The notes under the pieces are model-generated. The model did not search any database and had not been told where the DNA came from. It saw only the letters and a list, made by a program, of their open reading frames with translations. 64,000 nucleotides of DNA, from positions 690 through 64,689 of the forward strand of contig JBDHZD010000006.1 of the NCBI GenBank assembly GCA_039811705.1. The letters are read 5' to 3'. The stretch comes from Fimbriimonadaceae bacterium. Its GTDB lineage: Bacteria > Armatimonadota > Fimbriimonadia > Fimbriimonadales > Fimbriimonadaceae. This document shows, in pieces, positions 2,285 to 62,161 of the stretch; the first letter of the stretch is position 1, and every line of letters starts with the position of its first letter. A program made the position numbers and the translations under genes.

Positions 2285-2893
2285 CTACCTCTTCTTCTCG
2301 ATCAGCGGCTTGTCGTGTTTCTTCTGCGTCGCGACCATGAAGAGGTGATTGTCCCAGGTATCCACCACGCCGTCGAAGTTGAGGTCCGCGTCTGCCGGAA
2401 CACGGAACTTGAGGTCCGTGGCGGTGTACCAAAAATCGAAGTCCTTCTTGCGACCCATCTGGCTCATGATGTACGACTGGTCTTCCTTCGTCAGCTCGCC
2501 GTCGCGGTCCACATCGCCAAACTGAAGCTCCACCTTGGGCAAGACGAGAGCCTTGGCAGGATCGTAGTCGAAGACGACCCGCTTGTCTAGAGCGGTTCCC
2601 CACGACAAGATGACTTGATACCGACCTTTCGGAACTCGCACATCTTGCCCGGCGGTGGTTCGCAACACTTCGAAGGAAACGACGTTGCCTTCTTCCAGGT
2701 TGGTGTGAAAGTCCTCAAGGAGTTCTCCCGTCATCGTGTACGTTCGGAGCCGAATGCTGTCAGGCTCTAACGGTGGCTTCCCGTTGACCTCGAAGTAGAC
2801 GTATCCAGGCAACTTGGAGGGCTGCGCATTCGCTTGAACCTCCGAGTCAACGCCCGTCGCGAAGAGGGCCAATGCAAGGCTAAGGGTGATCAT
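2285..2893 (-). CDS. Secreted protein with C-terminal dockerin-like Ca-binding repeat pair
   Basis: Signal peptide MITLSLALALFATGVDS. Repeats GDVDRDGELTKEDQSYIM and ADLNFDGVVDTWDNHLF. A 2-nt gap to the upstream gene suggests co-transcription. Confidence 0.6.
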   Translation of the reverse strand: MITLSLALALFATGVDSEVQANAQPSKLPGYVYFEVNGKPPLEPDSIRLRTYTMTGELLEDFHTNLEEGNVVSFEVLRTTAGQDVRVPKGRYQVILSWGTALDKRVVFDYDPAKALVLPKVELQFGDVDRDGELTKEDQSYIMSQMGRKKDFDFWYTATDLKFRVPADADLNFDGVVDTWDNHLFMVATQKKHDKPLIEKKR

Positions 2894-2895
2894 GT

Positions 2896-4067
2896 TCAGT
2901 CTCCGTATTCTCCGTCGTTGGCGTCAGCGATGTCGTAGTCGTCGTGATCCACGTCGCCGTCGCGGTCCAAGTCGGCCATATAGGGGGCCACTCCGTTGCT
3001 GTCGGCAAAGTACCAGTCGTTGTCGGCGGAACTCTTGCCGTCAAAAAGGGTGATGATGTCTAGATCGTCCTGGTCCACGTCGTTGTCGTCGTCCACATCG
3101 CCGTACAGAAGAGTGAAACCGACGCCCGTCACGCCTGCCGTCGTGTACGCCACGTCCACACGCTTTCGCAGCGAGCCACGAGCTTTCAGATACACGCGAT
3201 AAGTCGCGTTGCTCAGATTGGACATGTCTACGTCCACGTTGCCGCTTCCATCCACACCCGTCGCATAGAGCAGTTGCGTGACGCCACCCGAGTTCGCCAC
3301 CTCGACATGAATCTCCTCGTTGTTCGCACCGTTGACTGTGCCGGCAATGTACTTCGTGTCAATGATTGGCGTGTTGAGCGTCCATTCCTGAGTCGCATCG
3401 GACGACGCAGTGGCCACCACCGAGTTGCCTCCCGTCGTTCCCCCGAAAGCTGCGGATGAGAACGCATCGATGGTCAAGAGAGGGACGTCCACAGTGGCTG
3501 TCCATGTGCCGTTGCCCATATCAGACCAAGTTGTTGTCGGCCGTCGTACGTACCCCTTGGCCGTACTCCATCCACCCCCGAGAAGCGGGTTCTCCTCATA
3601 GCCCCCAATGCCCGCCACGCTCGCTAGCTCCTCCAAGGTCATTTCACGGGTCACCTTGGCTATCGCCTGAGCCGAGGCTCCAGTTGCGCTGGTCGAGGCA
3701 ATGGCGACCACTTTGCCACGGCGGGTGTAGTCCAACTTGACTTTGCCTGCCGGTGGCGTCCCAGTGCAAGTCAGTGTGTATCGGATCACGGGCACCAAGC
3801 ACAGAGTCTTGTCGTTGACGATTCCCGTTGTCGCTTTCGACTTCGAAGCGCTGGACGAGACGCTCAAAGTGATTGTGGCACCGGAAACCGAGTGCTGGAA
3901 CTGGGCGGGATAGCCGGATGTGTAGACCGTGCTGTTACGCTTAACGGTGGCTGAAATCAGGCTAGGCGACGAAGCGGACACTTGAGCCCATGCCCCCCCC
4001 CCCCGAAAAATGGCAGGGCAAGAGACGGGATGAATGCCAAGGCTCTTAGCGGATGCACGAATCTCAC
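2896..4067 (-). CDS. Secreted dockerin-like protein, with its signal-peptide exon-like leader out of frame because of a G12 tract (tracked ORF is 2896..3981 only)
   Basis: The body ORF 2896..3981 has no RBS or signal peptide and ends in GDVDDDNDVDQDDLDII / ADLDRDGDVDHDDYDIA. Upstream, AAGGAG-N7-GTG (4067) encodes MRFVHPLRALAFIPSLALPFFGGGG and then runs into G12 (3993..4004). With 13 or 10 G the frames fuse to give ...FFGGGGAWA|QVSASSPS, an AXA signal-peptidase site. Confidence 0.6.
3993..4004 (-). repeat. Homopolymeric tract: C12 on plus strand, G12 on the coding strand
   Basis: Counted directly: 8 C in 3993-4000 plus 4 C in 4001-4004. It is the only long homopolymer I noticed in the window. 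Confidence 0.95.
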
Positions 4068-4198: not shown

Positions 4199-4543
4199 CT
4201 ACTTCGGAGTAAAGCTCGTCCCGCACCCGCAACCACGGGCGGCGTTCGGGTTCTCAAACTTGAACCCGCCGCCGATCAGGTTGCCGGTGTAATCCAGCGT
4301 CGAACCCTCAAGGAACCGGGCCGACTTCGGGTCGCAGAGAAACACGATGCCGTCGGCGACGAGGCGCAGGTCGGTGTCGCGAGCCTTGGTTTCCAGGGCC
4401 GTGACGTACTCCAGCCCAGAGCAACCGCCACCCTTGACGCCGAGTCGCACCATGGTGCCGGGGGGCTGCTTCTCCAGCAACCGCTTCATGCGGGCCAGTG
4501 CCGCCTCGGTGAGCGTGATCGGGAAAGCCATGCTACGTCCCAC
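4199..4543 (-). CDS. sufA: A-type Fe-S cluster carrier (HesB/IscA/SufA family)
   Basis: 114 aa with GVKGGGCSGLEY and C-terminal GCGCGTSF, the three conserved Cys of A-type carriers. Confidence 0.9.
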   Translation of the reverse strand: MGRSMAFPITLTEAALARMKRLLEKQPPGTMVRLGVKGGGCSGLEYVTALETKARDTDLRLVADGIVFLCDPKSARFLEGSTLDYTGNLIGGGFKFENPNAARGCGCGTSFTPK

Positions 4544-5009
4544 TCGCCACGGGGATCGAGAGCAACGATCCGTTCCGGGGTTTGTACAGATCGGCTTCCT
4601 TGTTGGCCTTTTCGATCAAGTCGGCCAAGGTGATGTGGGAAACGACTTGATCGACGGCCGACTGCACTTCGGTCCAGAGGCTCTTCACTGCGCACGAACC
4701 CGAATGCGCGCACGTCGAAAGCAAGCCCGAGTGGCGTTCGCAGAACTCCTCGTCGTACAACCGACCGCCCAACGCGGCCAGCACCTCGCCGACGATGATC
4801 TTCTCGGGTGCGCGGGCCAGCCGGTATCCACCGATATGACCCCGGGTCGAATTGAGAAACTTCTCCTTGCGAAGGATGCTCAGCAGTTTGGCCGTATGGT
4901 GCTCGGAGAGCCCCTCGTCGCGGCTGATTTCGGGAATCGTCGCCGACCCCTTGAGCCCGATCTGGATCAGGCATCGAAGGCCGTACTCTTCTTGGGCGCT
5001 GAACTTCAT
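4533..5009 (-). CDS. Rrf2-family transcriptional regulator with an Fe-S-type Cys triad
   Basis: MKFSAQEEYGLRCLIQIG winged-helix N-terminus. FCERHSGLLSTCAHSGSCAV has three spaced Cys, as in IscR-type Rrf2 proteins. Overlaps sufA by 11 nt. Confidence 0.9.
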   Translation of the reverse strand: MKFSAQEEYGLRCLIQIGLKGSATIPEISRDEGLSEHHTAKLLSILRKEKFLNSTRGHIGGYRLARAPEKIIVGEVLAALGGRLYDEEFCERHSGLLSTCAHSGSCAVKSLWTEVQSAVDQVVSHITLADLIEKANKEADLYKPRNGSLLSIPVASGT

Positions 5010-54244: not shown

Positions 54245-54337
54245 TCCAAAACCCTGTAGGATTGCCGGGTTTCCGCCGATACCTGCCTTGGCGGAACTCG
54301 GAAACGAGCGCCGCCACCAACAGGAAAACCGAGAAGC

Positions 54338-54601
54338 ATGGCCCGAATGCGCTCCACGTCCCAAGCCGTCTCCATCAGCGTCGCCAGTACGATCACCGGC
54401 GTCGAAGTCCATACCCTGCGCTATTGGGAAAAGGAGTTCGACGCGTTCTTGAACCCCGAGCGAACCCGCGGCGGCCAACGGCGCTACCGGCCCGAAGACA
54501 TCCAGACCGTCTTCGCCATCAAACAGCTTCTCCGCGACGAGATGTTCTCCATCGCCGGGGCGCGCAAGCATCTGGAGCGCACCCACCGGCACGCCGCGTG
54601 A
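54338..54601 (+). CDS. Small MerR-family HTH regulator
   Basis: ITGVEVHTLRYWEKEFD...GGQRRYRPEDI is a MerR-type HTH plus wing. 87 aa. Confidence 0.8.
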   Translation: MARMRSTSQAVSISVASTITGVEVHTLRYWEKEFDAFLNPERTRGGQRRYRPEDIQTVFAIKQLLRDEMFSIAGARKHLERTHRHAA

Positions 54602-54606
54602 CCCCC

Positions 54607-56637
54607 ATGTCCCCCCAATCCCAACTGGCTCTCGAGCAGTTCCGCGACGGTCGCTATCAGGAAGCCGAACGCACCGCCCTCCAATGCCCTCCGGACGAAC
54701 CCGGTCGTTGCGTCGCGCTGGGCATGGTCTACCTGCACACGCAGCGTGAAGCCGAAGCCCTCAGCTGTTTGGAGTCCGCGCCGGACGCCACGGTCGCAGC
54801 CTTGCTGGGCGAGCACCTCGCCGCCCGCCAAGCGATGGCCGCCAAGCTGAACCGTAAAGACCCCGAAGGCGAACGCATGACCGCCAGGTTCCAGTCGCTG
54901 GGCTACGCATTGCCTAAGCAAGGCGTCCGCCTGAGCGCATGCCTCATCGTCAAGGACGAAGCCGCCACGATCGACGCGTGCCTCAAGAGCCTGAGGGATG
55001 TCGTCGACGAGATCGTGGTGGTGGACACCGGCTCCACGGACGACACGATCGCTCGGGCCAAGAAGCACGGTGCGAAGGTCTACCATGCCGAGTGGACCGA
55101 CGACTTCGCCGCGGCGCGCAACGTCTCCCTGCAGCACGCTTCCGGCGATTGGGCGCTGTGGATCGACGCGGACGAAACGCTCGACCCTTCGAGCGCCGAC
55201 GCCATCCGCGAAGCCCTGATGCGGCCCCAGTTCGGCGGCTTCTTCGTGCGCATCGTGAACTATCTGGCCGACACGGGTCAAGCCGCACAATACGTCCACC
55301 GACCGATCCGTCTGTTTCGGCTGGCCGAGGGCGTGAAGTTCGTGGGCCGCATCCACGAGCAGGTTTCGCCGTCGATTCAGGCCACGGGAAGACCATGCGC
55401 CAACCTCGACGGCGTGGTGCTGCACCACTCGGGCTATCGCCCACAGGCGATGCGCGACAAGAACAAACTCGAGCGCACGATCTCGATGCTCGAGCGCGAG
55501 GTGGCCGAGCGGCCCGAGGACGGTTTCCAGTGGTTCAACCTGGCCAACGTGCTGAGCGTCGCTGGCCGGTATGCGGACGCCGAACACGCTGCGGTCCAAG
55601 CCAGCCGAAACTTTCCGCCCAAGGCTTCGTTTGTCGCGCCGGTCTACCACCTGATGGCGGTCAGCCGCATCGAGTTGGGCCGCCCGCAAGATGCCCTCGC
55701 GGCGTGCGACGAGGTGGAGCGATTGGGCCTGCACAACATCGTCAACCAGTTCAACCGTGCCCATGCTCTGATGCGGCTGCGAAGGCTCGATGAAGCGCTT
55801 GAAGCCGTCCGCGCGTGCGACGGCATGGAGTGGAACCCCGACATCCCCGGCGACTACGGCATAGTCACCCACAAGAAGCACGTTCTGGAAGGGCAAATTC
55901 TCGCGCAATCGGGTCGTTTGGACGAGGCGCTTGTCGCATTCGACGCTGCATTGGCCGTGGATCCGGATTACGACGTAGTGCTGTACTCCAAGGCGGCCAC
56001 ACTGGAACAGAAAGGCGACAAGGAACAGGCCAAGGCCGCCTATGAACGAGTGGTTGGCAGCGAAGCCCTCGACCTGCCCGCGCGCAAGGGCGCGATGCGC
56101 ATGCAACTCGCCTTAGGCGAATACGAACACGCCATCGCGATGGGCCGAGAGACTTGGGTGCGTTACATGGACGAGGACGCCTGGCTCCTTTGGGCGGGCG
56201 CCGCGGAACAGGCCAACAACCCCGTCGCCCTCGATGTGTGCTATCAGGCCTACGCGCAAGCCAACACGCCTACTCCGCAGATGTGGATCAATTGGGGACG
56301 CGTCCAAGAAGCCTTGGACAAACCTCAAAGCGCGTACGACTGCTATGCCGAAGCCATGAAGGCCGCACCACACGATCCGAACGCGTGCTTCAACGCGGCC
56401 GACCTGCTATACCGGTTGGGCTTGCACCACGAGGCCGCCGTTCTCTATCAAAACGGCCTGCAACTGGATTCGATGAAACCCGAAGGCTGGTTCTGCTTGG
56501 GCAACTGTCTGGCGCAGCTCGGCTTGGCCGATGGGGCTCGGCTGGCCTATGGCAAGACGCTCGAGCTCGACCCGCAACACGCTGGGGCGCAGCACAACCT
56601 GTCGCTGTTCGACGCGAGCCAACCCAAGGCTGCCTAG
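54607..56637 (+). CDS. TPR-repeat / family-2 glycosyltransferase fusion protein
   Basis: I trimmed the ORF to ATG 54607. The GT2 core is LSACLIVKDEAATIDACL...VVVDTGSTDDT...WIDADE, flanked by TPR repeats. Confidence 0.85.
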   Translation: MSPQSQLALEQFRDGRYQEAERTALQCPPDEPGRCVALGMVYLHTQREAEALSCLESAPDATVAALLGEHLAARQAMAAKLNRKDPEGERMTARFQSLGYALPKQGVRLSACLIVKDEAATIDACLKSLRDVVDEIVVVDTGSTDDTIARAKKHGAKVYHAEWTDDFAAARNVSLQHASGDWALWIDADETLDPSSADAIREALMRPQFGGFFVRIVNYLADTGQAAQYVHRPIRLFRLAEGVKFVGRIHEQVSPSIQATGRPCANLDGVVLHHSGYRPQAMRDKNKLERTISMLEREVAERPEDGFQWFNLANVLSVAGRYADAEHAAVQASRNFPPKASFVAPVYHLMAVSRIELGRPQDALAACDEVERLGLHNIVNQFNRAHALMRLRRLDEALEAVRACDGMEWNPDIPGDYGIVTHKKHVLEGQILAQSGRLDEALVAFDAALAVDPDYDVVLYSKAATLEQKGDKEQAKAAYERVVGSEALDLPARKGAMRMQLALGEYEHAIAMGRETWVRYMDEDAWLLWAGAAEQANNPVALDVCYQAYAQANTPTPQMWINWGRVQEALDKPQSAYDCYAEAMKAAPHDPNACFNAADLLYRLGLHHEAAVLYQNGLQLDSMKPEGWFCLGNCLAQLGLADGARLAYGKTLELDPQHAGAQHNLSLFDASQPKAA

Positions 56638-56700
56638 CTGAGAGCCGCAGCCAGCGTGCTCCCAGCGATCGCAGAATAGTCAAAAAAACCGATCTGGGCA

Positions 56701-56730
56701 TTGACATGACCCTCATAATCGTGATATCGT
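56701..56730 (+). promoter_or_regulatory. Sigma70-type promoter TTGACA-N18-TATCGT, 9 nt upstream of GTG 56740
   Basis: TTGACA at 56701-56706, 18-nt spacer, TATCGT at 56725-56730. No SD sequence before GTG 56740, so the transcript would be leaderless or near-leaderless. Confidence 0.35.
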
Positions 56731-56739
56731 TCATGCATT

Positions 56740-57141
56740 GTGAGACTCAAGCTGGAAGCCGTTGTCGTCTTCGGTGGGGTTTTGGCGAGCTTTGCGCTGG
56801 CGATTCCACCAAGTCCTTGTGTGCCGCCAAATCTATGTCCGGAGTGAGTGTGGTCCCAGAATGGACAAGGTTGCGGGCCGACCTCAGTCATCGAAACGGT
56901 GAACACCAACCAGAATGTGAACCTGAAGTACTGCACGAAGCGCAACCCAGAGTTCCACGGGTGTCCGGTTCCCGTAGGCCAATGCAACGAAGAAGAGTGG
57001 TGGTACTACACCAAGGCTGAGATTCGATGCGTGAACCAAACCACGGGCGCGTATACCGTGGTTGGAACGTGTGCTTGGGCCGTGTTGAGTAGAACGAAGT
57101 CCGGCCACATGTGTCCGGCGTGCTTGGAACCCGTGGAGTAA
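56740..57141 (+). CDS. Cys-rich secreted protein whose signal peptide (56740-56844) is separated from the mature domain (tracked ORF 56848..57141) by an in-frame TGA
   Basis: The same frame reads GTG-MRLKLEAVVVFGGVLASFALAIPPSPCVPPNLCPE-TGA(56845-56847)-VWSQNGQGCGPTS... The downstream part has 10 Cys and no signal peptide of its own. Confidence 0.5.
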
Positions 57142-57145
57142 ATGG

Positions 57146-57727
57146 ATGCGCAGAACGGTCATAATACGCGGGTGGACTTTGGTCGAGGTTCTTGGTGTCG
57201 CCATGATCTTGGCTGTCTTGGCGGGCATCGTTGCGCTCGTCGCTGGGCCCCGCATGAAGCGGTCGGCAACCGTCGCCGAGGCTGGCAACCACCTTCGCCA
57301 GCTTTCGTTCGCGCTCAACCTCTACATGAACGAGCACGACGGATTGCCGCCGAGGACGATCGAGCCGTTGCTGAGCGGCCTCCCGGCTCGGGACCCGCTT
57401 GGAGGTTCGTGGCTCTACTCCTGGGTTCGGTTCACTCCCGACCGTGAAGGAATTGACTTCGCCGACTATGGCTTCGAAATCGGCAAAGACGCTGTCTTTC
57501 GCTGCTCCCGAGTCCACAACCATCGAGGCAAGGTCGAAACCCTGGTAATGCGCGTTGACGGACATCCGCCGATCGTGCAACATGTGCCCATCCTGGATGC
57601 GGGCCAGAAACTTGGCCTGCTTGGGTCTCGTTTGGATGGCAGTGTCGGCTGGTTCCCCTCGCCTCCCAATTGGGAACTGGCCCTGCCCCAAGGCCAAGAC
57701 GACCCGAACAATCCCGGACGGCGCTGA
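57146..57727 (+). CDS. Prepilin-type N-terminal cleavage/methylation protein (DUF1559-like pseudopilin)
   Basis: MRRTVIIRG|WTLVEVLGVAMILAVLAGIV (G at -1, E at +5), then AEAGNHLRQLSFALNLYMNEHDG. It starts 4 nt after the upstream stop. Confidence 0.8.
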   Translation: MRRTVIIRGWTLVEVLGVAMILAVLAGIVALVAGPRMKRSATVAEAGNHLRQLSFALNLYMNEHDGLPPRTIEPLLSGLPARDPLGGSWLYSWVRFTPDREGIDFADYGFEIGKDAVFRCSRVHNHRGKVETLVMRVDGHPPIVQHVPILDAGQKLGLLGSRLDGSVGWFPSPPNWELALPQGQDDPNNPGRR

Positions 57728-58536
57728 TGATTGCGACCTGGCGTTGGCGGGGCGTTGGCATCTTTGCGATGCTGGCAAGTGCCTTGTGGCTCGCAGTCGG
57801 GAACTGCTCCGAGTGCGCAAGGCATGGATCGCTCGCAGTTGGACTGGCATGGGCGGGATTCGCATATGCGTTGCTAATTTCGTTCACGATCGCAAAGTGG
57901 GCACCGGGTTGGATTCAATCTGTCGCTTGGGTGGCGGGCTTAGGTGCCAGCGTGGTTGGCCTTTGGATGATCAGCTTGCTGACCACCCGCTCCGGACCCT
58001 GCCCGTGGTGCCTGACGTTTTGGGCAGGCCATTACGGGTGGGTACTGCATCAAGATGCCTGGAACAAGCGACAAAGAGTTCTGTTCGTTGCCGCAATGGC
58101 AGCTTCCCTATTGGGCCTCACTGCCGTCCGGATCGATCGAGACGCTGCCTTGGAAGTCGAGACGTTTGCTTTGGCGTACCTGCCTGCGTCCTCACCTGCG
58201 CCCCAGTGGATCGCGCCAGGCCGATCCATCCATCCGGACATCGTCTTGGACGATGGAGAAACCGCACTCATTGTTTGGACCGAATGCGCCCCGTGCGGCA
58301 GGGCGGCTGCGAAGTCGGGCCTCGCCGCATTCGAGCGGGCGTATCCGAAACGAAAGGTGTGGACTTGGCCCGGAGGCGTTGCGACTCTGCCCCAATCCCT
58401 CGGCACGGACTACCTGATACCGCCCTTGACGTTCTTCGACGACTTCGGGATGAGGCCCGACGACCCTCCAGCGTTCGTCGTTTTGCGGGGTCACAAAGTC
58501 GAACGAATCGGCAGACTCGCCGACTTCCGGCAGTAG
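57727..58536 (+). CDS. VKOR/DsbB-like polytopic membrane protein fused to a thioredoxin-like domain
   Basis: ATG 57727 overlaps the upstream TGA (TGATG). There are 4-5 TM segments with CSEC and CPWC, and the C-terminal domain has WTECAPCGRAA. Confidence 0.65.
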   Translation: MIATWRWRGVGIFAMLASALWLAVGNCSECARHGSLAVGLAWAGFAYALLISFTIAKWAPGWIQSVAWVAGLGASVVGLWMISLLTTRSGPCPWCLTFWAGHYGWVLHQDAWNKRQRVLFVAAMAASLLGLTAVRIDRDAALEVETFALAYLPASSPAPQWIAPGRSIHPDIVLDDGETALIVWTECAPCGRAAAKSGLAAFERAYPKRKVWTWPGGVATLPQSLGTDYLIPPLTFFDDFGMRPDDPPAFVVLRGHKVERIGRLADFRQ

Positions 58537-58591
58537 CTCGGCCCGACTTCGGGCGACGTCAGCCGCCCAGCGGCAAGGTATCTTCGGGGGC

Positions 58592-59179
58592 GTGAACGTG
58601 CTCCCGATCCTGCTCGCCGTCGCCATGGCCGCGCCCCAAAGCACGACCTACGTCCCCGCTCAAACCAAGGTCGCCCTGCTGCCGACGGTCAACACGTCGT
58701 CCGAGAAGTGGCAGGAACTGAAGGATCAGCAGTGCCAGCGCGGCGATGGCACGCTCAGGACGCTGTTCGAATCGTACGGTTTCCACGTGCTTTCGGCGGC
58801 TGCGGTCAAGACCTATCTCGACAAGGAGTCCATTGATCTGACCGACGAGGAGAACTGGAACCGCCGCACCCTGGCCGACATCGGCAAGGGCCTCGGCGTG
58901 CGCCTGATCGCCTTCGCGCCCGTGATCGACACGCTCCAGAAGAAGGACGAGAAGCTGTTCGTGACCAGCCAGGTCGGCATCGCCAAGCTCCGCGTGTGGC
59001 TGCTCGATACCGAAACCGGCACGGCTCACCTCACGGGCAAGCCGCTCGAGGGCAAGTCGCAGAACGACTTTGGCGGCAAGGGCAGCGACCGGCAAATCCG
59101 GGCCGTGGACCTTGCCTTGGAGGCTGCGCTCAAGGAGTTCTTCAAGCCCTACAAGAAGGTCAAGACCGCCGCGAGGTAG
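58592..59179 (+). CDS. Secreted hypothetical protein
   Basis: Signal peptide MNVLPILLAVAMAAPQS. 195 aa. No family recognised. Confidence 0.55.
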   Translation: MNVLPILLAVAMAAPQSTTYVPAQTKVALLPTVNTSSEKWQELKDQQCQRGDGTLRTLFESYGFHVLSAAAVKTYLDKESIDLTDEENWNRRTLADIGKGLGVRLIAFAPVIDTLQKKDEKLFVTSQVGIAKLRVWLLDTETGTAHLTGKPLEGKSQNDFGGKGSDRQIRAVDLALEAALKEFFKPYKKVKTAAR

Positions 59180-59191
59180 ACTGGACGGACT

Positions 59192-59641
59192 ATGGCGCGG
59201 CGCAAGCCGGAGGAATGGATCTGGCAGGTCGGCACCGAGCTGCAGCGGCTCGGCCACGAGATGATTCGCATGGGCCCGACTCTGGCGCGGAAGCTTTGGG
59301 AACCCCGGATCGACGTTCTTGAATCCGCACACGGCTTCCACATCCGGTGCGAGGTGGCTGGGGTCCGTGGCGACGACATCTCGGTGACCTTCAATGCCGA
59401 GCAACAAGTGATGACGATTCGAGGCCACCGGCGCGAGGAAGACCCCGATACCGGAGACCAGGTCGCTTGTCACCAACTTGAAATCTTCTACGGCGAGTTC
59501 GAGCGAGACGTGCCTCTGCCGCTCGACTACCTTGAACTCGCCGAAACGCGAGCCCAGTACCGCAACGGCGTTCTCACCATCTGCGTACCGAAGAAGGTTG
59601 GAATCTCTCGGAAGCGCGCGGTTGCAGTGCGCGGTGCGTAG
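59192..59641 (+). CDS. Hsp20/alpha-crystallin small heat-shock protein
   Basis: ACD core FHIRCEVAGVRGDDISVTF...FERDVPLP...AQYRNGVLTICVPKK. Confidence 0.9.
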   Translation: MARRKPEEWIWQVGTELQRLGHEMIRMGPTLARKLWEPRIDVLESAHGFHIRCEVAGVRGDDISVTFNAEQQVMTIRGHRREEDPDTGDQVACHQLEIFYGEFERDVPLPLDYLELAETRAQYRNGVLTICVPKKVGISRKRAVAVRGA

Positions 59642-59731
59642 ACACACACACGTTTGCTCAGGACGATCGGCCCATGCAGGAGGTTGGCTCCATGCGTCGA
59701 AACGTCATCATGAACGAAGCAACATATCCCC

Positions 59732-62161
59732 ATGTCCGATGTCAAGCCCCTTACCCTAGACGAACTCGACGACCTCGAACTCGAGGTGGAGTCAACGGGC
59801 GGGGAGGCGTCGGACGAGGGACGCAAGCCCGAAGTCCCGAACGAACTCAACATCCTCCCTCTCCGGGATTCGGTGATCTACCCGATGCTCATCGCGCCGC
59901 TCAGCGTTGGGCGAGAGTCGGGAGTGCAACTCATCGACGAGTCGGTCGTGGGCAACAATCGCGTCATCGGCGTGGTCGCCCAGCGTGCACCACAGATCGA
60001 CAGACCTGACTTCGACGACGTGTTCGACCACGGTTGCGCCGTGATCGTGCGAACGTTGGTCAAGCTCCCGGACGGGGTTCGATTGATCGTTCAGGGCGTG
60101 TCCCGCTTCCGCATCGTGGAGCGGTTGCAGGAGCACCCCTACCTGCGCGCAAAGGTCGAAGTGCTCGAAGAGCCCGACACACCCGAGGACAAGAGCGAGG
60201 AAATCGAGGCCCTGCGCCGCTCGATCTCGTCCCTGTTCGAACAGGCCATCCGCCTCTCGCCCACGCTGCCCGAAGAGTTGCGCAGCCTGACGCAAACCGT
60301 CCAAGAAACGAACGTCATGGCCGACCTCGTCGCGGCGCACATGACACTGACCGTCGAAGAAAAGCAAGCGATCCTCGAAGAAGTCAATCTCGAAAAGCGC
60401 CTTCGCAAACTGCTGGAGTTCCTCAGCAAGGAAGTCCGCGTACTCGAACTCACGTCGAAGGTTCAAAGCGAAGTCAACACCGAGCTCAGCAAGAGCCAGC
60501 GAGACTACTACCTGCGCGAACAACTGCGAGCCATCCAGCGCGAGCTCGGCGAAACCGACGACCGCGCGGAAGATCTGGAAGAACTCCAGGAGAAGATCGA
60601 TGCCGCCCAAATGCCCGAGGAGGCGCTGAAGGAAGTCCACCGCGAGTTCGAGCGGCTAAAGCGAATGTCGCCCGGCGCGCCGGAATACACAGTCGCGCGC
60701 ACCTACGTGGACTGGATGGTCAGCATCCCTTGGTCGAAGTTCACCGAAGACATTCTCGAGTTGTCCCGGGTCAAAGACGTTCTGGACGCCGACCACTACG
60801 GCCTGGAGAAAATCAAAGACCGCATCCTCGAGTTCTTGGCCGTTCGCAAAGTCAAGACCGACGGCAAGATCCGCCAGCCCATCCTGTGCTTCTCGGGCCC
60901 TCCGGGAGTCGGCAAAACATCGCTGGGCCGGTCGATCGCCCATGCCATGGGCCGCAAATTCATCCGTATCTCCCTCGGCGGAATGCGGGACGAAGCCGAA
61001 ATCCGCGGTCACCGTAGAACGTACATCGGGGCTCTCCCGGGCCAGATCGTTCAGGGTCTGCGAAGGTGCGAGAGCCGCAACCCTGTCTTCATGCTCGACG
61101 AAATCGACAAGCTGGGCAACGACTTCCGTGGCGACCCCTCGTCTGCTCTGCTCGAAGTGCTCGACCCCGAACAGAACAGCGCCTTCCGAGACCACTACAT
61201 CGACGCGCCGCTCGATCTGAGCAATGTCTTCTTCATCACGACGGCCAACCGCCTGGACACCATCCCGCCGCCACTGCGCGACCGCATGGAGATCATCGAG
61301 CTCGGCGGCTACACCGAGGAGGAGAAGACCCAGATCGCCATCCGACACCTGATTCCAAAACAGATTGCCGAGCACGGGTTGAAGAAGTCCCAGATCGCGT
61401 TCAAAGAAGACGCGATCCACGCCTTGGTGCGTTTCTACACTCGCGAGGCGGGCGTTCGGAACTTGGAGCGCGAGATCGCCAGCGTGGTCCGCAAGGTGAC
61501 CAGGCAAGTCGCCGAGGGACGAACGTCGAAGCTGACCGTGACCAAGAAGTTCCTCGAAACCGCCTTGGGTGCGCCGCGCCATCAGTACGAGGAAGTGCTT
61601 GAGCGCGATATGAAGCCGGGCACGTCCGTCGGCCTGGTGTGGACCCCCGTGGGCGGCGACATCGTGTTCATCGAGACCGCCCTGCTTCCCGGCTCGAAGG
61701 GGCTGATCCTGACCGGCCAACTGGGCGACGTGATGAAGGAGTCGGCCATGGCCGCGCTCTCCTACCTGCGCAGCAGAGCCGCCAAGTTGGGCGTGGACCC
61801 GAAGGTCTTCGTGGACAACGAACTCCATATCCACGTGCCCGCCGGCGCCGTGCCGAAAGACGGGCCGAGCGCGGGCATCACGATCATGGTGGCTCTCGCC
61901 TCCTTGCTTACGGGTCGGGCCGTGGCGCCGCGGCTGGCAATGACCGGCGAGATGACCTTGCAAGGCCAAGTGTTGCCCGTCGGAGGCATCAAGGAGAAGG
62001 TGCTGGCCGCTCACCGTGCGGGCGTGACCACGCTGCTCCTCCCCGATCGCAACCAGAAGGACTTTCTTGAGGACGTGCCCAAGGAAGTGCGCGACCAACT
62101 GACGGTGCACTTCGTCAAGGACGCCGATCAGGTGCTGCGGTTGGCTCTGCCGAAGGGCTAG
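59732..62161 (+). CDS. lon: ATP-dependent Lon protease
   Basis: LON N-domain (LPLRDSVIYP), Walker A GPPGVGKTS, protease Ser site PKDGPSAGIT. 809 aa. Confidence 0.95.
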   Translation: MSDVKPLTLDELDDLELEVESTGGEASDEGRKPEVPNELNILPLRDSVIYPMLIAPLSVGRESGVQLIDESVVGNNRVIGVVAQRAPQIDRPDFDDVFDHGCAVIVRTLVKLPDGVRLIVQGVSRFRIVERLQEHPYLRAKVEVLEEPDTPEDKSEEIEALRRSISSLFEQAIRLSPTLPEELRSLTQTVQETNVMADLVAAHMTLTVEEKQAILEEVNLEKRLRKLLEFLSKEVRVLELTSKVQSEVNTELSKSQRDYYLREQLRAIQRELGETDDRAEDLEELQEKIDAAQMPEEALKEVHREFERLKRMSPGAPEYTVARTYVDWMVSIPWSKFTEDILELSRVKDVLDADHYGLEKIKDRILEFLAVRKVKTDGKIRQPILCFSGPPGVGKTSLGRSIAHAMGRKFIRISLGGMRDEAEIRGHRRTYIGALPGQIVQGLRRCESRNPVFMLDEIDKLGNDFRGDPSSALLEVLDPEQNSAFRDHYIDAPLDLSNVFFITTANRLDTIPPPLRDRMEIIELGGYTEEEKTQIAIRHLIPKQIAEHGLKKSQIAFKEDAIHALVRFYTREAGVRNLEREIASVVRKVTRQVAEGRTSKLTVTKKFLETALGAPRHQYEEVLERDMKPGTSVGLVWTPVGGDIVFIETALLPGSKGLILTGQLGDVMKESAMAALSYLRSRAAKLGVDPKVFVDNELHIHVPAGAVPKDGPSAGITIMVALASLLTGRAVAPRLAMTGEMTLQGQVLPVGGIKEKVLAAHRAGVTTLLLPDRNQKDFLEDVPKEVRDQLTVHFVKDADQVLRLALPKG

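Follow-up and report, generated by a model that had tools for sequence, protein, structure and literature searches.

A gene cassette of Armatimonadota encoding a candidate disulfide-generating membrane protein, a pilin-like protein and a Cys-rich secreted protein

To our knowledge, disulfides are generated de novo in bacterial envelopes only by the DsbB and VKOR families. DsbB takes electrons from a partner with a thioredoxin fold and hands them on to quinone. In VKOR, transmembrane helices 1 and 2 (TM1 and TM2) are joined by a long loop that contains a Cx6C pair, a conserved Ser/Thr and a half-helix cap. Dedicated disulfide systems such as DsbL/DsbI and BdbA/BdbB (sublancin operon, B. subtilis SPbeta) are encoded beside their Cys-rich substrate. 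Other secreted proteins ride on minor pilins, CofJ on CofB and TcpF on TcpB. Here, we describe a cassette of three genes, designated C, P and M, in a stretch of 64,000 nucleotides (the window) from a Fimbriimonadaceae bacterium (Armatimonadota; assembly GCA_039811705.1, contig JBDHZD010000006.1, positions 690 to 64,689 of the forward strand). By analogy with Synechococcus VKOR and DsbB/DsbA, we propose with moderate confidence that M would be a quinone-coupled disulfide-generating enzyme with a fused thioredoxin-like carrier that folds C, that P would anchor or display C, and that the module is accessory and was recently exchanged. This proposal builds on the gene structure, the conservation of the triad, the motifs, the predicted fold and topology of M, and a recombination tract; the redox direction, the use of quinone, C as the substrate and the role of P are the parts drawn from the analogy. 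The cassette comprises the following features:

56701 to 56730, plus strand: sigma-70-like promoter, consisting of TTGACA (56701-56706), an 18-nt spacer and TATCGT (56725-56730), with an extended -10 TG

56740 to 57141, plus strand: gene C, encoding a Sec signal peptide and then a mature protein of about 105 residues with ten invariant Cys; disrupted in the window

56845 to 56847, plus strand: in-frame TGA, codon 36 of gene C, which is GGA (Gly) in near-identical relatives

57146 to 57727, plus strand: gene P, encoding a type IV pilin-like (pseudopilin-like) protein of 193 residues with a class III signal (RG/WTLVE), a hydrophobic alpha-1 helix and a unique C-terminal domain

57727 to 58536, plus strand: gene M, encoding 269 residues with five predicted transmembrane helices, a C-terminal thioredoxin-like domain and three CxxC motifs

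57805 to 57816, 58000 to 58011 and 58285 to 58296, plus strand: the CxxC motifs of M, CSEC (C27/C30), CPWC (C92/C95) and CAPC (C187/C190), respectively

M is a rare protein. Searches of Pfam and NCBIfam revealed no family at E <= 1, and phmmer, run exhaustively over 1.84 billion cluster representatives, yielded 12 proteins at E <= 1e-3. A word-indexed profile search added only two members that were already known, a pattern scan of JGI metagenomes added none, and a scan of GTDB recovered a single locus, L015. The three CxxC motifs, already listed in the preliminary description of the locus, were all found, and in the family alignment (A1) C92/C95 (CxxCLxFW) and C187/C190 (WTxCxPC) are invariant, C27/C30 (GxCxxC) is present in every full-length member, and PP247-248 is nearly invariant. 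AlphaFold2, supplied with the family alignment, produced a full-length model with a predicted local distance difference test score of 89.0 and a separate model of the transmembrane domain with a score of 89.7; the predicted helices span residues 2-23, 34-54, 61-88, 93-107 and 114-136 and are followed by an alpha/beta domain. Across the family, 54 Lys and Arg residues occur in the N-terminus and in loops 2-3 and 4-5 versus 13 in the two CxxC loops. By the positive-inside rule, this distribution predicts a periplasmic position, outside the cytoplasm, for the soluble domain and the two membrane CxxC motifs. The preliminary description had staked its reading on none of the motifs being cytoplasmic, and the count places all three on the outer side. 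In the modelled soluble domain, a strand (178-184) precedes C187APC190, which opens a helix (188-197), and P247-P248 lies right before a strand (249-254). A CxxC that opens a helix after a strand and a Pro pair before a strand, resembling a cis-Pro loop, are hallmarks of the thioredoxin fold that the domain appears to display.

The closest architecture is that of the Synechococcus VKOR-thioredoxin fusion (3KP9, 4NV2, 4NV5, 4NV6), which, like M, has five transmembrane helices and an extracytoplasmic thioredoxin-like CxxC domain. Each of the two has one Cys pair, a CxxC, at the outer end of TM4 and another in the TM1-TM2 loop. A Foldseek search with the transmembrane domain of M returned five chains of this protein as the best matches in the PDB, with query-normalised TM-scores (TMq) of 0.45-0.55 and probabilities of up to 0.91 (4nv5_B, E = 0.43, probability 0.91, TMq 0.55; 3kp9, TMq 0.45), none of them at E <= 1e-3. 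With the full model, the fusion aligned over 278-300 columns at a TM-score of 0.32-0.33, and the top matches were thioredoxin-like oxidoreductases (2b5x, FetE, DsbF, CcmG) at E = 0.04-0.3, again none at E <= 1e-3. A VKOR trait is evident in both AlphaFold2 models, in which helix 93-107, TM4 of a four-helix core, begins with the invariant C92xxC95 at the end predicted to be extracytoplasmic. Unlike the Synechococcus protein, however, M is about 40 residues shorter, has no detectable sequence homology to it and reaches only non-significant Foldseek E-values; and whereas the loop pair of VKOR is a Cx6C in a long capped loop, that of M is a CxxC without cap and half-helix. Membership in the VKOR family (PF07884) was rejected at the level of sequence, since no Pfam match was obtained at E <= 1 and only one of 11 family members gave E = 0.23. 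An hhalign comparison with a manually entered sequence of human VKORC1 gave a probability of 0.7% and aligned the CxxC segment alone, and a profile search of the PDB with M found nothing beyond CxxC tetrads. It was concluded that M has the architecture and cysteine logic of VKOR-thioredoxin fusions but is not assignable to the VKOR family, because the profile test failed and the long capped TM1-TM2 loop is lacking. The label VKOR-thioredoxin in the preliminary description therefore holds for the architecture, with a marginal Foldseek match in its favour, but failed every test by sequence.

E. coli DsbB and its partner DsbA offer the second comparison. M shares with them a four-helix membrane core, a CxxC in a short first periplasmic loop and a thioredoxin-fold partner, which in M is fused. 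It differs in the second loop: DsbB has two distant Cys in a long loop, whereas M has a CxxC at the start of TM4, so that loop 1 contains a CxxC in both proteins and loop 2 contains a CxxC in place of the separated pair. DsbB (PF02600) was rejected as the family of M, as there was no Pfam match, no DsbB among the top 50 Foldseek matches and an hhalign probability of 1.1% (manually entered DsbB sequence). The thioredoxin families of Pfam and NCBIfam likewise gave no match. As judged from its sequence, M belongs to no described family. In kind, the cassette would be a variation on dedicated Dsb or VKOR systems, introducing no new principle, with an enzyme family that appears to be undescribed.

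A phage or defence origin was also considered and rejected. PADLOC and IMG/VR gave no match, tblastn of phage genomes found none, a fold search of BFVD returned nothing meaningful, and PHROGs gave only one weak hit. The latter was to phrog_781, a phage family of unknown function with a 152-position profile, which is matched by M residues 92-145 (CxxC-TM4-TM5) at E = 0.0022 and by four of the 11 family members at E <= 1.

In the proposed mechanism, electrons from the Cys residues of a secreted substrate would enter the CxPC of the periplasmic thioredoxin-like domain (C187/C190), pass to the CxxC of the short TM1-TM2 loop (C27/C30), and from there to C92/C95, the CxxC where TM4 has its outer end, with membrane quinone as the last acceptor. 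C would be the dedicated substrate, its ten conserved Cys giving five disulfides. P, a protein of the type processed by prepilin peptidase, would tether folded C to a type IV filament or pseudopilus, or display it there, the machinery being encoded elsewhere. M might instead act as a reductase or isomerase, in the style of CcdA/DsbD and ResA/CcmG, with C or a different envelope protein as the client whose Cys it keeps reduced or whose disulfides it shuffles. A CxPC is common in reducing thioredoxin-like proteins, the thioredoxin-like matches of M include reductases (CcmG, 1kng; the ResA-like 2b5x; SdbA/TlpA-like proteins), and a protein with ten Cys may need isomerisation. However, CcdA/DsbD carry their catalytic Cys inside the transmembrane core, where they can be reached from the cytoplasm, whereas all conserved Cys of M are found in outward loops or the outward domain. 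With none of them in mid-membrane or in a loop on the cytoplasmic side, M lacks a route by which cytoplasmic thioredoxin could supply electrons, and in the Foldseek ranking the membrane domain is nearer to VKOR than to CcdA/DsbD. We consider a reductive or isomerising role unlikely.

The candidate substrate, C, has no Pfam, NCBIfam or PDB match. Homologues are present in the cassettes of L015, L013, L014, L008, L017 and L019. Ten Cys columns are conserved, nine of them without exception in the alignment (A6); the remaining column is shifted in a single member, which contains four additional Cys. The Cys spacing is irregular, as in disulfide-rich folds and unlike that of metallothionein. This bears on a different explanation, in which the module would be devoted to a thiophilic metal (Cu, Zn, Hg or Cd), bound or passed on by the CxxC motifs of M and the Cys of C. 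CxxC motifs commonly bind metals, four of six C proteins end in CPxC, and MerR-family regulators are encoded nearby (54338-54601, judged by eye, and downstream of lon on L001-L004, where Pfam MerR_1 matches). Against this, the MerR genes lie outside the conserved module in other lineages, the Cys spacing is not that of a metallothionein, the soluble domain of M carries thioredoxin hallmarks, and neither Pfam nor NCBIfam revealed a metal-transport domain. Handling of metal is thus very unlikely.

In the window, gene C is interrupted. The preliminary description had treated 56740-57141 as an intact open reading frame and had overlooked the TGA at 56845-56847. The only mechanically listed intact frame of the gene is 56848-57141, which encodes 97 residues without a signal peptide; the first 35 codons (VRLKLEAVVVFGGVLASFALA/IPPSPC...), a typical Sec signal peptide, are severed from the Cys-rich body by the TGA. 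Four near-identical metagenome contigs (L002, L004, L005, L006) read GGA where the window reads TGA. An uninterrupted product of 133 residues (P0002) is encoded in L002, L004 and L005, and in L006, a fragment that begins at the position equivalent to 56826 of the window, the GGA is retained. In L003, gene C carries a separate lesion, a 1-nt deletion (GGGCC-ACC) at about 56880, 33 nt downstream of the TGA site, that results in a frameshift. Readthrough of the TGA as selenocysteine or by other recoding was rejected: the relatives encode Gly (GGA) rather than Cys at this position, no structure resembling a selenocysteine insertion sequence was found, and the window contains no tRNA-Sec; its only tRNA gene is tRNA-Cys. 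RNA folding downstream of the TGA is no better than that of shuffled sequence (z = -1.0). The comparison identifies the TGA as a variant rather than a recoding signal, a nonsense codon, whether fixed, polymorphic or an assembly error, that in the sequence as assembled would knock out gene C. Recurrent loss of C could mean that a surface-exposed product is sometimes counter-selected.

P conforms to the class III signals of type IV pilin-like proteins in its basic leader, its Gly or Ala at -1, its hydrophobic residue at +1 (Trp in the window), its Glu at +5, which is invariant across the family, and its alpha-1 helix. These features are shared with type IV pilins and the pseudopilins of type II secretion systems (TIGR02532, PF07963, GspG). 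N_methyl (PF07963) matches eight of eight members and TIGR02532 seven of eight, whereas DUF1559 matches one of eight, at E = 0.04. With a profile of the P family, solved pilins and GspG were matched in their N-termini (E = 1e-9 to 1e-5), whereas the window copy alone stays below the cut-offs (N_methyl, 13.6 versus 21.2 bits; GspG, E = 1.6e-4). P differs from the type IV pilins in its C-terminal domain, which ends in an invariant GxRLDGSxGW and matches no family, and in having no assembly genes adjacent to it. Its position beside the gene of a small Sec-secreted protein recalls the minor-pilin and secreted-protein pairs CofB-CofJ and TcpB-TcpF. P itself was rejected as the disulfide substrate, as it has no conserved Cys.

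The association of the three genes extends well beyond the window. M, P and C adjoin in the window and in L002-L006, L015, L013, L014, L008-L010, L017 and L019. Beyond the near-identical contigs, the neighbourhoods of M homologues with 17-43% identity were compared, and the association holds down to an M identity of 17-25%. Six metagenome contigs carry a near-identical M (P0001, 99% identity). The cassette recurs in about nine lineages, with flanking genes that differ in every one, and a search of JGI metagenomes with the P motif pattern retrieved a single relative, which also adjoins M and C. A literature search found no paper on the module, and none on the sample accessions. The cassettes outside the immediate relatives are arranged as follows:

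L015 (metagenome-assembled genome Chthonomonas sp. AMX-MBFR-81, Armatimonadota): C-P-M

L013 (P0006): M-P-C

L014 (P0007): M-P-C

L008-L010 (P0014): M-P-C-P2, with C uncalled by the gene finder

L017 (P0010): M-P-C

L019 (JGI contig): M-P-C, with M split over two frames

L016 and L018 (P0009 and P0012): P-M and M-P, respectively, both reaching contig ends

The M homologue of L019 occupies overlapping frames (2428-2811 and 2715-3173), which reflects a frameshift or a sequencing error.

The arrangement also bears on the possibility that M serves P or the envelope in general, for example as a housekeeping oxidase, and that C is an unrelated passenger. Pilins of other bacteria need Dsb enzymes, L007 encodes P and M without C, and C is inactivated in the window and in L003. 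However, P has no invariant Cys, and none whatever in L015 and L007; C is adjacent in seven independent lineages despite a shuffled gene order (C-P-M or M-P-C); and a housekeeping oxidase would hardly be so rare, with 12 representatives in 1.84e9, or be encoded in a recently exchanged accessory tract. Service to P or to the envelope at large, with C as a bystander, is accordingly improbable.

Several observations weigh against M as an oxidase dedicated to C. The redox direction is not readable from sequence, the quinone site of M is putative, and an interaction between P and C is purely conjectural. M has no significant sequence or structure match to the VKOR, DsbB or thioredoxin families, all Foldseek E-values being at least 0.04, and its TM1-TM2 loop comprises only about residues 24-33 (about ten residues), with the CxxC in a one-turn helix (28-31), so that this trait of VKOR is absent. 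No pilus-assembly genes (assembly ATPase, platform, secretin) adjoin the cassette. Furthermore, C is disrupted in the window and in L003, and L007 retains P and M without C, in contrast to L015, which is about 92% identical and has C. In L007 (5296-5452, compared with L015 3646-4380), a 157-nt segment, with a promoter and a P leader peptide unlike those of L015, stands in place of the promoter, gene C and the 5' part of P. M and P thus persist without an adjacent intact C, which weakens C as the only substrate.

The strongest evidence for exchange of the module is a tract of low divergence:

56592 to 59055, no strand assigned: tract of 2.46 kb, probably the result of recent recombination or transfer

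It starts about 45 nt before the end of the upstream TPR-glycosyltransferase gene, takes in the promoter and all three cassette genes, and extends some 460 nt into a gene for a protein of 195 residues (58592-59179), which has a signal peptide, no family match and a very high G+C content at third codon positions (GC3), 0.90; a recombination breakpoint therefore lies within the latter gene. The window was compared with contigs L001-L005, which are syntenic with it (MerR, TPR-glycosyltransferase, cassette, 195-residue gene, hsp20, lon), with pairwise divergence in the tract determined over 56592-58800:

Upstream flank: 10-11% between the window and the contigs, 5-6% among the contigs (L002 versus L003, 1.7%)

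Tract: 0.27-0.32% between the window and the contigs, 0-0.14% among the contigs

Downstream flank: 14% between the window and the contigs, 0-6% among the contigs (L001, L002 and L004 identical; 6.3% to L003)

Over 56592-59055 only six sites (about 0.3%) distinguish the window from L002, L004 and L005. One is the TGA/GGA difference, two are synonymous, and three alter an amino acid: W5R and D176N in M, and T18A in the product of the downstream gene. The tract is shorter in L003, where it stops near 58816. Synonymous sites are as conserved as the rest, so that purifying selection cannot explain the tract. The sequence comparison strongly supports a recent spread of the tract by homologous recombination into at least three diverged backgrounds. 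The view that the cassette is accessory and horizontally acquired, put forward in the preliminary description, is borne out by its rarity, by its different neighbours in each lineage and, decisively, by a tract of about 99.7% identity amid flanks that have diverged by 10-14%.

The tract also bears on whether the locus is a decaying, non-functional remnant in this genome. The premature stop in C, a GC3 below that of the neighbours and the failure of gene callers to report even the intact C of L002, L004 and L005 could be taken as signs of decay. However, P and M are intact, and only C is damaged; the tract is near-invariant across backgrounds, its five differences other than TGA/GGA being two synonymous and three conservative; the catalytic motifs of M have been kept over deep divergence; and the promoter is conserved. 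Decay of the whole locus is therefore quite improbable.

The signals for expression agree with an autonomous unit, as had been suggested. The TTGACA-N18-TATCGT previously noted 9 nt before the GTG at 56740 is present, with a TG one base upstream of the -10 hexamer and no Shine-Dalgarno sequence ahead of the GTG; it is the sole sigma-70-like site in 56300-59800, where shuffled sequences contain 0.7 +/- 0.8. Because the start codon follows the -10 hexamer by only 9 nt, the mRNA of gene C would be leaderless or nearly so. L015, L007 and L008 have equivalent promoters ahead of the first gene of the cassette, with a perfect TTGACA, a spacer of 17 or 18 nt and TAxxxT. The equivalent start codon of L015 (MRFKVEL, which aligns with VRLKLEA of the window) is located 8 nt after the -10 hexamer, and the similar spacing suggests a conserved leaderless or near-leaderless transcript. 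The close packing of the genes was confirmed: the TAA of gene C (57139-57141) and the ATG of gene P (57146) are separated by 4 nt, with a GGAG (57135-57138) 7 nt upstream of the ATG, and the TGA of gene P (57725-57727) overlaps the ATG of gene M (57727-57729) in TGATG. Inside the cassette no plus-strand terminator was found, and Rfam gave no riboswitch or small RNA match at E <= 1 in 56000-59800.

The composition of the locus is less telling. The G+C contents of two 60-nt lines of the cassette (56701 and 56881), previously counted by hand as 45-48% compared with about 63% for a housekeeping line (8701), were determined to be 45.0%, 48.3% and 63.3%, and lines of at most 48% G+C make up only 1.7% of all, so that the two are extreme. 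The whole locus, at 59.7% G+C versus a mean of 63.1% for the window (standard deviation 2.1% among stretches of equal length), ranks at the 7th percentile of such stretches, and gene C, at 56.5%, at the 3rd. The GC3 values of the three genes are 0.66, 0.71 and 0.68 versus 0.794 +/- 0.063 for 47 open reading frames that served as proxies for the genes of the window, i.e. 1.3 to 2.1 standard deviations low but inside the range of other genes. Equally low or lower G+C contents occur elsewhere, in 500-nt windows from 26001 (0.53) and 48001 (0.55). The AT-richer patch reported earlier is therefore real in G+C and GC3 but mild, and the dip alone is weak evidence of foreign origin.

Two side observations concern the upstream neighbours. 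A MerR-like frame, its similarity judged by eye, lies at 54338-54601, directly upstream of the TPR and glycosyltransferase-2 gene (54262-56637). The mechanical frame of the latter, 791 residues, is probably an overestimate, as 676 residues are called in L002-L004.

Homopolymers were also recorded. An A7 at 56681-56687 of the window, just 5' of the -35 box, has one extra A in L003, a length polymorphism beside the promoter. In the window and all loci compared with it, only four homopolymers of at least 8 nt are present, three of them 25-52 nt upstream of the first gene of a cassette:

L013, 5963 to 5976: G14

L018, 1468 to 1477: C10

L016, 1 to 17: C17, at the contig end

The fourth is a C12 at 3993-4004 of the window, intergenic between minus-strand frames 2896-3981 and 4533-5009. 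The upstream homopolymers could point to phase-variable promoters, and the C17 at the end of L016 could be a sequencing or assembly artefact. In a bolder version, which we regard as rather doubtful, M would represent a third class of membrane disulfide-generating enzyme beside DsbB and VKOR, a minimal five-helix form with two outward CxxC motifs and a fused thioredoxin-like domain of no described class. It would have evolved to oxidise a single client, a disulfide-knotted surface protein associated with a pilin. The module would then be a contingency locus, in which C is switched off by nonsense, frameshift or deletion and by the upstream homopolymers, and which is swept between strains by recombination.

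Given the short list of known enzymes for disulfide generation in bacterial envelopes, a compact protein that follows the logic of DsbB and VKOR without detectable homology to either would extend it. M would also be a small, tractable model, being 269 residues long, predicted with high confidence and encoded beside its probable substrate. We know of almost no experimental genetics in Armatimonadota, and of many unexplained pilin-like paralogues in this phylum; the strict pairing of M with a pilin-like protein suggests that these bacteria have an unstudied function at the surface or in secretion. Finally, the sharply bounded, near-invariant tract in genomes that have diverged by 10-14% provides a clean natural case of a gene-specific sweep or transfer, which indicates that the cassette is under current selection.

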